The notes beneath the pieces are model-generated. The model was not told the DNA's origin, did not search any database, and saw nothing but the letters and a program-made list of their open reading frames with translations. From a phage, in sequence record PZ452584.1: a DNA stretch of 64,000 bases; one strand, written 5' to 3'. The position numbers and the translations under genes are program-made. Positions within the stretch are counted from its first letter, which is position 1. Each line of letters starts with the position of its first letter. Positions 32,849 through 40,822 of the stretch are shown here, in pieces.

Positions 32849-33138
32849 TCAGTCTCCAATTTAATGTTCATAATTCTAGCGTATGATTGTGCCATCTCCG
32901 CGCCTCGTTCTATACATTCAAAATCAGAAGAGCACGGGTCATTTTTATAGGTCGTTCTCATAAAACTATAGAATTGTTCAGACGATTCTACGCTTTTATT
33001 TTCAAAAAGTGTATAAACGTGCCTAATACCAGATTCCATAAATTTATCAAAATGAGGATCGACATTCGCTTCAATCGATGGAGATAAAACAAATGACAAT
33101 CCTAGCATGGCAAAAAGTGCCGTTGCTTTTAAGGCCAT
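32845..33138 (-). CDS. rI: lysis-inhibition regulator RI (membrane/periplasmic)
   Basis: 97 aa MALKATALFAMLGLSFVLSPSIEANVDPHF... matches T4 RI as recalled; N-terminal signal-anchor. Confidence 0.85.
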   Translation of the reverse strand: MALKATALFAMLGLSFVLSPSIEANVDPHFDKFMESGIRHVYTLFENKSVESSEQFYSFMRTTYKNDPCSSDFECIERGAEMAQSYARIMNIKLETE

Positions 33139-33150
33139 AAAGGCCTCCTA

Positions 33151-33363
33151 TCATTTTTGTCCTGTATTTACTTTATGCCGGTGCACGGCCTTAACTTTAT
33201 CAAGGTATTTTTCAAAATTTCGCAATCTAGTATAGTCTGCCGGAGATTGGTTGAGCGATACTTCTCGACGCAAAGCTGAAATGATATTTCCAACTTCCCT
33301 ACGAATTTCATCTAATTGAAGCACAGTAAGATTGCGAAGTTGCTTTTCAGTTAATTGTAGCAT
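33151..33363 (-). CDS. hypothetical protein (T4 rI.1 position)
   Basis: 70-aa ORF between tk and rI. Confidence 0.5.
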
Positions 33364-33405
33364 ATATACCCCTTTAGTTAGATAAACCTATTTATAACTT
33401 TTGCA

Positions 33406-33987
33406 CTAACCGAGTTTTTTAGTTAATTCATTCCAATGTTTTCTACACAAAGAAACATAAATTTCATCACCAATACAGATTTGATTACCTTCTTTAACTG
33501 GTGTTCCATCTTCCATTAATCGAGCTGTCATAATCGCTTTTTTACCGCAATGACAAACTGCCTTTAGTTCAATAAGTTTATCTGCAATCGCCAAAAGTTC
33601 TTTAGAACCTTCAAACAATTTTCCAGCGAAATCAGTCCTTAATCCATAAGCCATAACAGGAACATTATATGTATCAACAATTCGGCTCAATTGATGCACT
33701 TGTTCAGTTTTTAAAAACTGAGCTTCATCTACAAATACGCAATGAATATCTTTTTGTGCTTCAGCCCATTTATAGAACTCGAAAATATCCATATCATCTG
33801 TAATAATATTCGCTTCCTGTTTAATTCCAATGCGAGAAACAACTTCACAGACAGAATCGCGAGTATCAATAGCAGGCTTAAGAACTAATACACTCATTCC
33901 ACGTTCTTTATAATTATGTGCAGCAGTCAAAAGAGAAGCAGATTTTCCAGCATTCATTGCTGCATAAGTAAAAATTAAACTCGCCAT
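33406..33987 (-). CDS. tk: thymidine kinase
   Basis: 193 aa; P-loop AAMNAGKS, VDEAQF, C-terminal zinc ribbon CHCGKKA...CRKHW. Confidence 0.95.
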   Translation of the reverse strand: MASLIFTYAAMNAGKSASLLTAAHNYKERGMSVLVLKPAIDTRDSVCEVVSRIGIKQEANIITDDMDIFEFYKWAEAQKDIHCVFVDEAQFLKTEQVHQLSRIVDTYNVPVMAYGLRTDFAGKLFEGSKELLAIADKLIELKAVCHCGKKAIMTARLMEDGTPVKEGNQICIGDEIYVSLCRKHWNELTKKLG

Positions 33988-33996
33988 ATCACCTTC

Positions 33997-34203
33997 TTAA
34001 AGCGTATTCACATAAGCTATTAATTCATTTTCTTTCTTATCAAACCGATCAGCAAATTCTTCCTGCTGTTCGGGAGATAGCGGGCCGTATTCATCATAAA
34101 AGGTGTTTGCTTCTGTATGCTCATCTAGAAGTTCATGGATAAGCTCAAACAATTTATCTTTTTGTTCTTTACTCAGACTCATAACCATGTCACCTTTAAG
34201 CAA
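33997..34203 (-). CDS. hypothetical protein
   Basis: 68-aa acidic ORF. Confidence 0.4.
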   Translation of the reverse strand: MLKGDMVMSLSKEQKDKLFELIHELLDEHTEANTFYDEYGPLSPEQQEEFADRFDKKENELIAYVNTL

Positions 34204-34391
34204 TATTCTTCTACATGTTGTTTACGACCTTTCTTATCAATAAAGGTATATTCAACGAATGTTCCAATGTAGTCTTTATCTACATCATGTGGACTATTAA
34301 TTGGACATTTAGTACGGCAAATGCGTTCCCATTGACGAATAATTACTGCTTTGTTTTTAGGATCAAACGGATGTGGGTAATGTACTTTCAT
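34179..34391 (-). CDS. hypothetical protein
   Basis: 70-aa ORF. Confidence 0.4.
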   Translation of the reverse strand: MKVHYPHPFDPKNKAVIIRQWERICRTKCPINSPHDVDKDYIGTFVEYTFIDKKGRKQHVEEYCLKVTWL

Positions 34392-34842
34392 AATCCACCA
34401 CTATTAAATCAATATCAGGAGTAAACATGTCGATTAATTTAGAAACCTTATCCCAATCACCGCCAGCAATACCACAACCTATGCGTGGAATGTAAATTAC
34501 CGGTTTAAACAAAAGGGTTTCTGCCTGTAGATTTAATTCTATCATGCAGTTTACTAAAGCACCATAATCAAGATTAGGACCTGGTTCGTATTGCGTATAC
34601 AGGTTATAGCATATACCAAATCCCGTAGGACTATGTTTAAAAACAATAGACATATCACCTAATTTATCACGAGAACCGTACTCGGTAGTGGTTTTATCTA
34701 TTTCTAAAATTTTGGGATAGGCTCTTGCTAATTGACCCGCTACACCTGAACCCATAGTATGAAAACAATTGCACCCATGCGCAATAATATTACCTTGAAG
34801 AAATAGGGCGACAATATCGCCCTTGATATATTTTACAATCAT
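34363..34842 (-). CDS. macro-domain (ADP-ribose-binding/processing) protein
   Basis: 159 aa; GDIVALF...IAHGCNCFHTMGSGVAGQL and IGCGIAGGDW fit macro-domain signature motifs. Confidence 0.55.
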   Translation of the reverse strand: MIVKYIKGDIVALFLQGNIIAHGCNCFHTMGSGVAGQLARAYPKILEIDKTTTEYGSRDKLGDMSIVFKHSPTGFGICYNLYTQYEPGPNLDYGALVNCMIELNLQAETLLFKPVIYIPRIGCGIAGGDWDKVSKLIDMFTPDIDLIVVDYESTLPTSV

Positions 34843-35186
34843 CTAGTACTCAATCCTCGATTATAAGAATCTACCAAACGGTCAACCATTGAATGACAAG
34901 CGGCTTTATCTTTCTCCTCCGCAACTGAACATTCTAAGGTATTCCACTTTTTAGCATATCGTTTTAACAATGTATCGTTTTTGTATCTGCTTGATTTATC
35001 TCTTTCTCCGTCTTTATATGCATATATTAATTTCTGTGCAAATTCAGCTTGGCATGCTTTATTTTTCCCGCAATAATCTGCCGCAGTGCGGTTTACATAT
35101 TCTCTAATTTCAGTATATGATGTATCTGCTGACGCAGAAGCAGAAAATGAAATTAATCCTATACATAAAACCAAAATTTTAGTCAT
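34839..35186 (-). CDS. secreted/periplasmic small protein (115 aa)
   Basis: N-terminal signal peptide MTKILVLCIGLISFSASASA; 4 Cys; position/length of T4 vs, not verified. Confidence 0.45.
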   Translation of the reverse strand: MTKILVLCIGLISFSASASADTSYTEIREYVNRTAADYCGKNKACQAEFAQKLIYAYKDGERDKSSRYKNDTLLKRYAKKWNTLECSVAEEKDKAACHSMVDRLVDSYNRGLSTR

Positions 35187-35724
35187 TTACTATTTCCAAA
35201 AGTTTATTATTTTTAAGGTAATTAGCCTTTTCTAGGACTTCAGAAGCATATTTAGAACCAGCTTTAACATTCCATCCCGAATTATAAGAGGATATTGCTT
35301 TTCTTATATCGCCCTTATGTATATTTAACCAATAAGAAAGTTCAATGTACGCCCAGGAAGCTGAATTGGACCGTTTATTCAACATTCTTTTTATTTCAGC
35401 ATCGGTCATATTATAACCAAGTTCCTTAACTCTTGCTCGCATAGTAGGCAAATAATTTTGGAACATTCCATAAGCGTGATGCTTTGGTTTAGATTTTAAA
35501 TTAACTCCGCCAGAGCTTTCTTGCCATAAAATAGCAGCCATTATATGACCTAATCCGCTCTTGTGGATATTTTTGTGTGTTTTATATTTTCCATCCTTAG
35601 AAAACTGTTCCCCGAATTGATACGCGTAACGCATGTTATCGAGTTGGACATTACTGAAAGTATGCTCGGAGCTATGTGCCATCATTGAAATGGCCAATAG
35701 ACCAGCGAGTAGTGCTTTTCTCAT
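35179..35724 (-). CDS. secreted lytic transglycosylase (SLT-domain) protein
   Basis: signal peptide MRKALLAGLLAISMMAHS; SLT motifs ILWQESSGG (E-S), AYGMFQN, SSYNSGWN. Confidence 0.6.
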   Translation of the reverse strand: MRKALLAGLLAISMMAHSSEHTFSNVQLDNMRYAYQFGEQFSKDGKYKTHKNIHKSGLGHIMAAILWQESSGGVNLKSKPKHHAYGMFQNYLPTMRARVKELGYNMTDAEIKRMLNKRSNSASWAYIELSYWLNIHKGDIRKAISSYNSGWNVKAGSKYASEVLEKANYLKNNKLLEIVND

Positions 35725-35731
35725 GCTTACC

Positions 35732-36193
35732 TCATTGAGTTTTAATTACTGCTTTAGAAGCCTTTCCTGGTAAACGACGACTATTGATAATTGCCATCCT
35801 GCACTGAAGTGACGGGTTTTTGAACTTCGCATTAGGTTTACAAACTGTAAATCCAAGCCAAAGATTTCCATCTGTGATTTCTAAACGTCCAGGACGATAT
35901 TCAACCCCATCAATAAAATCCTCGTCAATGTCAGGACGCGGAGGCATACTCAGGAATTCATTAACTTCTAAAACATGGTCTTTTATTTTATGGAATAATT
36001 CAAAAACATATGTCTCGTCAATCTCCCGTTGAATTGCACGATCAAGAAGATGCTGAGAATATTTTAGATGAAACGATGAGACCCCTGCTGCTTTTGATGC
36101 CTCACGAATCTCATTGTTAATTTGACGAAACTCCGACTCAAAGTGACGACGGAGCTTATTTCGACGGATAAAAACTTCTGTGTTGATAGTCAT
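35732..36193 (-). CDS. regB: RegB endoribonuclease
   Basis: 153 aa MTINTEVFIRRNKLRRHFESEFRQINNEIREASKAAG..., T4 RegB size and position. Confidence 0.88.
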   Translation of the reverse strand: MTINTEVFIRRNKLRRHFESEFRQINNEIREASKAAGVSSFHLKYSQHLLDRAIQREIDETYVFELFHKIKDHVLEVNEFLSMPPRPDIDEDFIDGVEYRPGRLEITDGNLWLGFTVCKPNAKFKNPSLQCRMAIINSRRLPGKASKAVIKTQ

Positions 36194-36220
36194 GTTATTC
36201 TCCTCTTAACTGATAGAAAA

Positions 36221-36250
36221 ATTATACCACAGTCAAGAGGAAAAGTAAAC
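36221..36250 (-). promoter_or_regulatory. sigma70-type early promoter (regB)
   Basis: GTTTAC-N18-TATAAT 28 nt upstream of regB ATG. Confidence 0.55.
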
Positions 36251-36252
36251 AG

Positions 36253-36531
36253 TTATTCTTTAAATCTGATCAATTTATTCATAGACTTTGAAACTTCTGC
36301 ACGAACCTCATGTAGATTTTTGAGCTGTTCAAGACGCTGCGCATAGTAAGCAATTTCATCTTCTTCGAGACAGTCCTGCGAATCTTCTTTAAGATAGCGT
36401 GCATAATCCTGGAAAGCATTACGAATTACTTCTTGGAAGTCATCAAGACTTTGAATTTTCTTAGGAGCGGCAGATACACGACGAGGTGCAGTATAATACT
36501 CATAACCAAACCCTGCGCTTAATTGAGCCAT
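36253..36531 (-). CDS. hypothetical protein
   Basis: 92 aa from ATG 36529-36531; TAATG overlap with upstream gene. Confidence 0.4.
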
Positions 36532-36797
36532 TAGTATTTTTCCTCTGGTTGGAACACAGCACGGCAAGCCCACATACTTGCTTCTTTGAGTTTCGTTTTA
36601 GCAATAGTTAACTGATCGAGGCTTTCGGCGTAATTCTTCGCGAGTTCATCATCTTCACAGCTATCAAATGCTTCCCAAAATTCATTGTATAAAGCATCAA
36701 AGATAAGTCCTAAACGAACTTCAGCGTCTTTAATAGCATTTACTTTACCGATTTTTTCGTCGGTATGTGGCTTATAACCTTTAATATCTTCAATCAT
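36531..36797 (-). CDS. hypothetical protein
   Basis: 88 aa from ATG 36795-36797 (SD GAGGAA). Confidence 0.4.
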
Positions 36798-37011
36798 ATT
36801 TGACTTCCTCACCAGTACATAAATCGTATTCAACTAAACGAATAGGTTCATGAATGCCATATCCCTGAACAGAAATTTCTGTAGTAGGATAAATTCCATT
36901 AATATCACCCATGTTCCATGCTTCGTTAAATTGCTGTTCGCCTGAATTACTAAACCATTCGGCAAAAGCATTTAGCACATCTTCAGAACCTTCAATAATT
37001 ATCTTTGCCAT
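36790..37011 (-). CDS. hypothetical protein
   Basis: 73 aa; ATG overlaps stop of GrcA-like C-terminal frame (TAATG). Confidence 0.4.
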   Translation of the reverse strand: MAKIIIEGSEDVLNAFAEWFSNSGEQQFNEAWNMGDINGIYPTTEISVQGYGIHEPIRLVEYDLCTGEEVKYD

Positions 37012-37372
37012 TACAAACTTTCAGTAAAGGTACGAGCGATAACGTCGCGCTGCTGTTCCGGAGTCAGAGAGTTAAAGCGAACTGCATAACCGGATACACG
37101 GATGGTCAGCTGCGGATATTTTTCCGGATGCTTAACTGCATCTTCCAGAGTTTCACGACGCAGAACGTTAACGTTCAGGTGTTGACCACCTTCAATTTTA
37201 ACTGTAGGCTGTGGCTCAATTTCAATTTCACGGGCATGCAAACCATAGAAAATTTCCGGGTCTACAAAAGAGTCCTCTTTAAAGGTTTAGAAACGATAAT
37301 TCGTGCTTGAATACCATCTTCAAAATAAATAGTACCTTTATGTGTGCCTTCAAGAATTTGATATGCTTTCAT
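37011..37372 (-). pseudogene. GrcA/YfiD-like glycyl-radical cofactor gene interrupted by an apparent 1-nt frameshift
   Basis: C-terminal frame (37286-37011) encodes ...[72 protein letters not shown], near-identical to E. coli GrcA C-terminus; N-terminal frame (ATG 37370-37372, [30 protein letters not shown]...) stops at TAG 37262-37264; frames join if one base is added in TTTAAA run at 37278-37283. Confidence 0.7.
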
Positions 37373-37379
37373 ATAAACC

Positions 37380-37760
37380 TCAATTAGAAAATAAATTTAT
37401 CCAAGATTGTTCTTTAATTAAAAATGGCTCAGAATCATATGCCATTAAACTTTGCGTAATTAATCCTTTAAAAGGTCCATCAATAAATTCCATGGTAAAA
37501 TATGGAATTTTATTCATTAGCCGTGCATTAGGAGCAGTGCACAAAACTCTGCATCCTTTGAATACGCCTTTTTGTAATTTGTATTGCTTGGGATAAAATT
37601 CGCTTAAAATGTTGTTATTTGCCAAAATTTCAAAATGATTCACCAATTTATTTTTAATAGTTTTTGGCGAAAAATAAAGATATTCGAAAAGCTGAGTGTC
37701 TGTCATCATTGCATTCCGATTACGAAAAACTGTGGACGAGTAATACCACCAATGCAACAT
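37380..37760 (-). CDS. hypothetical protein
   Basis: 126-aa ORF; overlaps upstream ORF by 55 nt in different frame. Confidence 0.35.
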
Positions 37761-38182
37761 TTAATATTACAGCAGCAGTGTACTGTGTCAATATGGACAC
37801 TATAAATCTTATCCATATCAGGAGATTTGACAGGCTCATCAATTATATATAAAATTCGCGAAAGCGATAAACCTCTGAACTTGCTTCCTTTATTACCGAT
37901 AAAACTGCGCACAGAATCAGTAAATAAACGAAAACGTATATCATCATTAGAATAACGCGAAAATTCCTTTTTGATGCTATTTGCAGAAATTTTAGCGTAA
38001 GCTGAAGTATTAGAAAGAACAATAACTGTTCCACCATCTATACGAAGTGTGCAATACTGCTTAAGTAAGTCTTCAAATGGTGGGATATAATCGTTTTTAC
38101 AAATTTCTTCTACTCTAGCATCAGAATGGTGTGTAAAAGCATTCATCAGGGATAGATAAGGACCAGTTAAAAATGTTCTCAT
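37706..38182 (-). CDS. hypothetical Cys-rich protein
   Basis: 158-aa ORF, C-terminal HCCCNIKCC. Confidence 0.35.
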   Translation of the reverse strand: MRTFLTGPYLSLMNAFTHHSDARVEEICKNDYIPPFEDLLKQYCTLRIDGGTVIVLSNTSAYAKISANSIKKEFSRYSNDDIRFRLFTDSVRSFIGNKGSKFRGLSLSRILYIIDEPVKSPDMDKIYSVHIDTVHCCCNIKCCIGGITRPQFFVIGMQ

Positions 38183-38326
38183 TTCTTCTCTCTAAATTTG
38201 GGCCATTCCGTGGCGCATGAATTGTCCATTTCTGTATTTACCCATTACCGCGCTTGGGCTCGACCTTATTACAGGTTGGCGGGAATCCCTCATATAATCA
38301 TGAGGTCCAGGTTGTTCCCATGTTAT

Positions 38327-38743
38327 TTAAATGTAAATATTTTTGCCGTAATACTTATACCAGTGCGGCTTCATTAAAATTTTTTCATCGAGTCGTTGTT
38401 GACTCAACCTAATAGCTGATTTGCATGGATTATAATCATTTTTCCATTCTACTGGAATATCACTGATGTCAGGAACTTCAGTATCTTTTATACTAAACCT
38501 GCGTTTTAAGCATTCCGTTATAATGTCTGATTGACGCTTTCGCAAAAATTCTAACTTATCGTAAAAGAACGTAACATGACCAGAACCTAAAATAAACTCG
38601 GAAGATATTTTAAAATCTTTAACCCGTTTACCATTTTCCACGTGTTTACGAATTATACCAAAAACACGTGGCAATTCACGGTATTCCGCGATTAAATGTT
38701 GATCAGCAAGTTCAGATACTAAAGTCAAATTAATACGAGTCAT
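38327..38743 (-). CDS. denV: endonuclease V (pyrimidine-dimer DNA glycosylase) DenV
   Basis: 138 aa [28 protein letters not shown]...; clearly homologous to but divergent from T4 DenV as recalled. Confidence 0.88.

Positions 38744-39834: not shown

Positions 39835-40803
<969 letters not shown>

Positions 40804-40822
<19 letters not shown>

Follow-up and report, generated by a model that had tools for sequence, protein, structure and literature searches.

What a small stand-alone macrodomain protein does for a T4-like phage, and whether it acts against a host defence, is the question raised by an open reading frame (ORF) in the phage sequence record PZ452584.1, of which a stretch of 64,000 nt was analysed (the window). 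The phage is a Tequatrovirus, with the surrounding DNA 98% identical to many T4-like genomes. According to the ORF list of the window, the frame runs from ATG to stop at 34363..34842 on the minus strand and encodes a protein of 159 aa consisting of one macrodomain. The original prediction had given exactly these coordinates and had read the ORF as a macro-domain protein because of two motifs, GDIVALF...IAHGCNCFHTMGSGVAGQL and IGCGIAGGDW, both of which are found in the translation. It had also placed the gene next to tk (33406..33987); tk is not the immediate neighbour, as two small ORFs lie in between.

The ORF is the known tk.4/adfM gene of T-even phages, and both the gene and its role have already been described for T4. 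BLASTP aligned the window protein over its full length with T4 Tk.4 (NP_049723; 58% identity over 155 aa, E=1e-70), and the position of the gene between vs and tk.3, downstream of regB, matches that in T4, JS98 and Mosigvirus. Both proteins have the same single-macrodomain architecture at nearly equal length, the window protein being 4 residues longer, and both contain the family-invariant residues H22, N25, Q84, G122, G124 and W130; the glycine-rich loop reads IGCGIAGGDW in the window protein vs IGAGIGKGNW in T4 Tk.4. The T4 annotation of tk.4 is “phosphatase; contains A1pp phosphatase motif”. Of 50,697 phage records, 2,789 contain a homolog of Tk.4; T4-like, Felixounavirus, Pseudomonas, Vibrio, Acinetobacter and Bacillus phages are among the carriers.

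A function for T4 tk.4 was reported in a preprint of November 2025, in which a T4 transposon library was screened on E. coli expressing DarTG2 and only tk.4 came out as significantly depleted on the DarTG2 host (10.1101/2025.11.20.689424). A clean knock-out of tk.4 rendered T4 DarTG2-sensitive, and the gene was renamed adfM, its product AdfM being an anti-DarT factor with a macrodomain; the published support for T4 Tk.4 is genetic, and the enzymatic removal of ADP-ribose from DNA was inferred by the authors (10.1101/2025.11.20.689424). The name AdfM was given independently to PhiKZ gp104 in a 2026 Cell Reports article, where this protein removed DarT2-placed ADP-ribose from ssDNA in vitro and the N23A exchange reduced its activity (PMC13309987). 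DarTG2 resistance is retained by T2 and T4 when the NADAR protein AdfN is missing (PMC11825919). The suggestion in the original prediction that the protein reverses ADP-ribose modifications gains support from the DarTG2 sensitivity of the T4 knock-out and from the conservation of the residue set of SCO6735 described below. Moreover, the deletion mutant on a DarTG host that the prediction had proposed as a test is what led to the assignment of T4 tk.4 in 2025. Because the gene is the tk.4/adfM of T-even phages, the finding is correct yet already known, and it illustrates that a real counter-defence gene can be recovered from reading the sequence alone.

Pfam, PHROG and PDB matches together with a structure model identify the window protein as a stand-alone macrodomain of the TARG1/DarG/SCO6735 (ALC1-like) class. 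The predicted macro domain was borne out by Pfam Macro (PF01661), which matched over profile positions 2-117 of 118 (E=1.3e-7, 32 bits vs a gathering cut-off of 22 bits), and PHROG 335, labeled “phosphatase”, matched with E=9.7e-72. Among PDB sequences, matches were obtained to BT1257 (3.8e-10), yeast Poa1p (1.6e-9) and, as a distant relative, Streptomyces coelicolor SCO6735 (PDB 5E3B; 8.5e-8), and more weakly to M. tuberculosis DarG (5e-5) and human TARG1 (0.01); with BT1257 as its top match, this PDB sequence search returned no solved structure of the Tk.4 family. Poa1p (PDB 6LFQ) is an ADP-ribose-1''-phosphate phosphatase, and strong similarity to it is confined to the N-terminal half, whereas BT1257 from Bacteroides thetaiotaomicron (PDB 2AFC, 2FG1) is itself without assigned function. 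AlphaFold2, run on an alignment of 80 sequences, gave a confident model (pLDDT 94.2, pTM 0.89) with the three-layer alpha/beta macro fold, the nearest structural neighbors of which are TARG1, DarG, SCO6735/BT1257 and Poa1p, not the MacroD, PARG or viral Mac1 types.

Of these relatives, SCO6735 is the most informative for the active site. Like the window protein it stands alone, with no DarT partner; without a lysine, it removes the ADP-ribose linked to thymidines of DNA, and it can rescue cells exposed to DarT (PMC9411070). Mutant Q85A is inactive, N27S almost inactive and G128E reduced in activity, and the proposed mechanism employs a positioned water, while Gln85 keeps the distal ribose in place and is itself held by Asn27 (PMC9411070). 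In the window protein, the position of the catalytic lysine (K84 in TARG1, K80 in Thermus DarG, FPTK in PhiKZ AdfM) is occupied by Q84 within N80-L81-Y82-T83-Q84 (LYTQ; codons 34591..34605, minus strand). This Gln-for-Lys replacement was seen alike when the family profile was aligned with TARG1, when a hybrid query was aligned with SCO6735 and in a ten-sequence MAFFT alignment; BT1257 carries it as well. In the MAFFT alignment, the second catalytic residue of TARG1, D125, corresponds to Ala in the window protein and to Gly in T4 Tk.4. The N-terminal active-site motif H22-G23-C24-N25-C26 (codons 34765..34779, minus strand), defined from the family alignment and SCO6735, aligns with H24-V25-C26-N27 of the latter, with Gly in the window protein where SCO6735 has Val25. 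The glycine-rich phosphate-binding loop P119-RIGCGIAGGD-W130 (codons 34453..34488, minus strand), recognized by its likeness to SCO6735 and BT1257, is nearly identical in all three (PRIGCGIAGGDW in the window protein, PRIGCGLAGGTW in SCO6735, PRIGCGLAGGKW in BT1257) and has the form PRIGCG(I/L)AGGxW in SCO6735 and the window protein.

Residues H22, N25, Q84, G122 and G124, which align with H24, N27, Q85, G126 and G128 of SCO6735, are invariant in the 80-sequence family alignment, as are G23 and C26. Among 121 family sequences, Q84 is found in every one and H22, N25, C26, G122 and G124 are found in 119, the other 2 having gaps. The window protein therefore has the set characteristic of SCO6735: Gln at the catalytic-Lys site, the positioning Asn, and the His and Gly-loop residues. 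By analogy, the enzyme most likely uses SCO6735-type chemistry. The missing lysine is no obstacle to an anti-DarT2 role, since SCO6735 works with Gln; lacking this lysine, the T-even enzyme probably works like SCO6735, a point that was not raised in the preprint that named it. The two proteins differ outside the catalytic set. In SCO6735, a mobile loop bearing Lys89 and Lys94 exceeds that of DarG/TARG1 by five residues and has an apparent role in DNA binding (PMC9411070). This extension is absent from the window protein, where the loop QYEPGPNLDY (vs QHGMKTGSKGAPVRY in SCO6735) has the length seen in DarG/TARG1, and the net charge is -5 (acidic) in the window protein vs +5 (basic) in SCO6735. 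Because it has no long Lys-bearing loop and is net acidic, the window protein may bind DNA differently from SCO6735.

The window protein is not DarG-type. With the SCO6735 residue set including Gln, it scored only about 28 bits on DarG models (27.7 bits on NCBIfam NF048014, 27.5 bits on the PADLOC model) vs a cut-off of 250 bits, and Gln84 stands where DarG has its catalytic lysine (Thermus K80, FPTK). The architecture differs too: DarG (PDB 5M3I, 5M31, 7OMU) comprises a toxin-binding domain at its C-terminus and is encoded next to darT, and DarG models span 329-338 positions, whereas the window protein is a bare macrodomain of 159 aa with vs and tk.3 as neighbors. Membership in DarG was therefore rejected on score, catalytic residue and architecture. 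T4 Tk.4 scored similarly low on the NCBIfam and PADLOC DarG models (30 and 36 bits), whereas PhiKZ gp104 reached 137.8 bits (NCBIfam) and 132.9 bits (PADLOC) on their macrodomain part. Judged by sequence, the two proteins called AdfM, T4-type Tk.4 and PhiKZ gp104, fall in different macrodomain subclades, because they differ in the catalytic position (Gln in LYTQ vs Lys in FPTK) and in DarG-model score (27-36 vs 133-138 bits). PhiKZ gp104 is closely related to DarG and has the catalytic Lys; T4 Tk.4 and the window protein are related to it only distantly and have Gln. The shared name thus probably conceals a difference in mechanism.

Bacterial relatives, examined at 80 loci, are mostly stand-alone ORFs of 146-190 aa and are 33-44% identical over the best-matching segment. 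Within 6 kb of these 80 loci, tblastn with a single query, P. aeruginosa DarT2, found no DarT2 (best E=0.97), and a Pfam census of 102 flanking ORFs, considering the 25 commonest families, showed no recurrent neighbor family; the relative in Pelagimonas sits among housekeeping genes. An origin as the antitoxin of a DarTG operon was rejected on this basis, with no DarT2 nearby (one DarT2 query) and no recurring partner. As none of the three neighborhood checks shows a toxin partner, the family does not appear to be a DarTG antitoxin recently captured by phages; rather, it resembles the orphan, “protective” status proposed for SCO6735.

Some neighborhoods of the family point elsewhere. In the Vibrio phages Rocket24 (OQ079156.1) and VF16 (LC811684.1), the Tk.4 homolog adjoins an annotated ribose-phosphate pyrophosphokinase gene, and Pribosyl_synth neighbors occur with two bacterial relatives as well; part of the family may thus be connected with ADP-ribose/NAD salvage instead of DNA repair. 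A Microbacterium phage record contains a homolog of T4 Tk.4 (30% identity) within a feature annotated “ADP-ribosyltransferase”, where macrodomain and transferase of this actinophage could be either fused or side by side.

Taken together with the published phenotypes, we consider it probable that the tk.4/adfM macrodomain removes DarT2-placed ADP-ribose from thymidines of phage ssDNA and so counters DarTG2. DarT2 would attach ADP-ribose to thymidines in single-stranded phage DNA and the macrodomain would take off the adduct, so that replication would be restored and the phage could grow on DarTG2-carrying hosts. Cleavage would proceed without a lysine, by the mechanism put forward for SCO6735: Gln84, kept in place by Asn25, would position the distal ribose, the glycine-rich loop G122-G128 would hold the diphosphate and a water molecule would perform the chemistry. 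This proposal draws on the macrodomain fold, the structural class, the gene position shared with T4 tk.4 and the conservation of the SCO6735-type residues found here, and on the T4 tk.4 knock-out phenotype and SCO6735 enzymology from the literature. Against it speak the net charge of -5, unlike an expected DNA-binding surface, the missing catalytic Lys of DarG/TARG1, the lack of the longer Lys-bearing loop of SCO6735 and the low DarG-model scores (27.5 and 27.7 bits).

A gene that might act further along this route lies 5.5 kb upstream of tk.4 on the same strand: a homolog of the Nudix hydrolase gene nudE (e.1; 40367..40822, minus strand; 151 aa with a Nudix box), adjoining the lysozyme gene e (39835..40329). 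T4 NudE has been reported to hydrolyse ADP-ribose. The homolog could dispose of ADP-ribose freed by the macrodomain.

The tk.4 allele of the window differs from that of T4. Amino acid identity of Tk.4 is 94% to Dhakavirus JS98 and 58% to T4, whereas for vs, vs.1, regB, tk and rI the values are 99-100% to T4 and only 27-70% to JS98. Sliding-window comparison located a divergent patch at 34340..34700 (minus strand), covering the C-terminal two-thirds of tk.4, in which nucleotide identity to T4 drops to about 45-70%; over the initial ~140 nt of tk.4 it amounts to 80-90%, and it is 97-100% through vs, vs.1, regB and most of tk.3. Accordingly, the 65 of 155 aligned positions that differ from T4 Tk.4 lie mostly in the C-terminal two-thirds. 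By these sequence comparisons, the allele is a swapped patch of Dhakavirus type. The nearby tk.2 behaves in the same way (90% aa identity to JS98, 54% to T4), and tk.3, which lies between them, is T4-like (96%); since tk.2 and tk.4 are Dhakavirus-type and the intervening tk.3 is not, two separate swapped patches lie within 900 nt. In addition, tk.1, a T4 gene of 189 nt, is missing from the window (region 33988..34203).

Phage records with at least 90% aa identity to the window protein numbered 319; the window-type core, defined separately by at least 90% nt identity over 34363-34700, was found in ~300 records. BASEL phage Paracelsus is one natural carrier of this allele. The T4-type allele (at least 90% aa identity to T4 Tk.4) was present in 224 records and a Mosigvirus-type allele (80-90% aa identity to T4 Tk.4) in 159. 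Among sequenced T-even phages, the window type is hence the most common form of tk.4, rather than the T4 type. In T2 and T6 the allele is of the T4 type (99-100% identical to T4), and their DarTG2 resistance was therefore rejected as cover for the window type; since T2, T4 and T6 all have this type, the published DarTG2 phenotypes apply to the T4-type allele. All catalytic residues are identical between the two alleles in the MAFFT alignment, and because of this identity we infer the same function, that is, the same substrate and the same phenotype, for the 58%-identical window allele. The difference is relevant when the ability of T4-like phages, therapeutic or environmental, to escape DarTG2 is to be predicted.

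A more far-reaching reading, which we regard as rather unlikely, is that the Tk.4 family forms a distinct, lysine-independent (Gln-type) lineage of phage enzymes for DNA de-ADP-ribosylation, with a recruitment separate from that of the DarG-like PhiKZ AdfM, and that the exchange of alleles between T-even genera reflects an arms race. If so, each allele would act against its own DarT2 variants or against other ADP-ribosyltransferases of nucleic acids, perhaps partly through direct toxin binding.

Several other functions have to be weighed against removal of the DarT2 adduct. The protein could be a broader eraser, acting on uracil-linked ADP-ribose on RNA or Glu/Asp-linked ADP-ribose on proteins that stems from defence or competitor toxins other than DarT2, with DNA thymidine a minor target or one among several. 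This is conceivable because SCO6735, with the same Gln-type site, also hydrolyses protein ADP-ribosylation (PMC9411070) and removes uracil-linked ADP-ribose on RNA (PMC13036486); bacterial relatives standing alone without a DarT partner fit it too, and 58%-identical alleles within 99-100% identical flanks are compatible with diversifying pressure, so that divergent alleles might differ in the substrate handled. We nevertheless find such breadth doubtful, given that the depletion of T4 tk.4 was specific to the DarTG2 host (10.1101/2025.11.20.689424), that the catalytic residues are all identical between alleles and that the mRNA ADP-ribosyltransferase system CmdTAC restricts T-even phages despite tk.4 (PMC11618068). 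The database label “phosphatase / A1pp motif” implies a hydrolase of small molecules instead, acting like Poa1p on ADP-ribose-1''-phosphate or on O-acetyl-ADP-ribose in nucleotide metabolism rather than in counter-defence. Yet this label is a homology transfer, and activity on ADP-ribose-1''-phosphate is a common in vitro side reaction of macrodomains. Moreover, T4-type phages are not known to encode a Tpt1/KptA pathway making this compound. Considering also that the sole known phenotype of the T4 orthologue is DarTG2-specific (10.1101/2025.11.20.689424), we judge a role in nucleotide metabolism improbable.

Neutralisation of DarT2 mainly by binding the toxin, not by hydrolysing the adduct, would accord with the absence of the canonical catalytic Lys, with the fast divergence of non-catalytic residues (65/155 positions), as in co-evolution with a partner, and with the finding that catalytically dead SCO6735, DarG and TARG1 inhibit DarT in vitro, SCO6735 most strongly (PMC9411070). 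However, the residues needed for SCO6735 catalysis are invariant throughout the family down to ~38% identity, which argues for selection on catalysis and disfavors inhibition by binding only, and the C-terminal domain by which DarG binds DarT is missing from the 159-aa protein; this mode of action appears quite improbable. Least of all do we expect the protein to degrade or sequester the Thoeris signals gcADPR or His-ADPR, or to reverse ADP-ribosylation by the phage enzymes Alt, ModA and ModB, ideas that found no support and that we hold to be very improbable. Removal of DarT2-placed ADP-ribose from ssDNA is thus the function we favor.

As to its expression, tk.4 lies in the minus-strand gene order regB, vs.1, vs, tk.4, tk.3, tk.2, tk, rI.1 and rI, which is that of T4. 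The stop codon of vs and the start codon of tk.4 overlap in ATGA (34839..34842, minus strand, read directly from the sequence), an arrangement that suggests translational coupling, and a Shine-Dalgarno-like GAGGA/GAG stands directly upstream of the start. At the other end, the ORF coordinates give an overlap of 29 nt between the 3' end of tk.4 and the start of tk.3 (34363..34391, minus strand); by the annotations, this overlap is also 29 nt in JS98 vs 4 nt in T4. From the gene order and the overlaps, tk.4 is probably co-transcribed with its minus-strand neighbors regB, vs.1, vs, tk.3, tk.2 and tk. Two small ORFs overlapping the gene, 34554..34658 (minus strand) and 34215..34424 (plus strand), were taken as chance ORFs.

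A scan of 33000-38500 for promoters and terminators yielded nothing specific to tk.4 except a plausible site upstream of regB, and the number of promoter-like sites was at chance level (19 found vs 21.2 expected). The site in question, the best minus-strand promoter-like sequence near tk.4 (TTTACT-17-TATAAT with an upstream TG; 36221..36249, minus strand), lies directly upstream of regB (35732..36193) and is consistent with co-transcription of tk.4 with regB, vs.1 and vs. Terminator-like sites were somewhat enriched in this 5.5-kb region (8 found vs 2.5 expected). One terminator-like score went to AGGGCGATATTGTCGCCCT (34805..34823, both strands), a GC-rich hairpin with a T-rich stretch behind it. 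This element falls within the initial 40 nt of the coding sequence of tk.4 and could either be due to chance or modulate translation or transcription.

Additionally, we noted a change in vs.6 (37011..37372, minus strand), the T4 version of which is a GrcA-like autonomous glycyl-radical cofactor of 120 aa. Compared with T4, the window has a 1-nt deletion in an A-run near 37285-37289, which splits vs.6 into two ORFs, one of 36 aa (37262..37372) and a C-terminal one of 76 aa that begins with TTG (37011..37241); the split gene is either a frameshifted pseudogene or the product of a homopolymer sequencing error.
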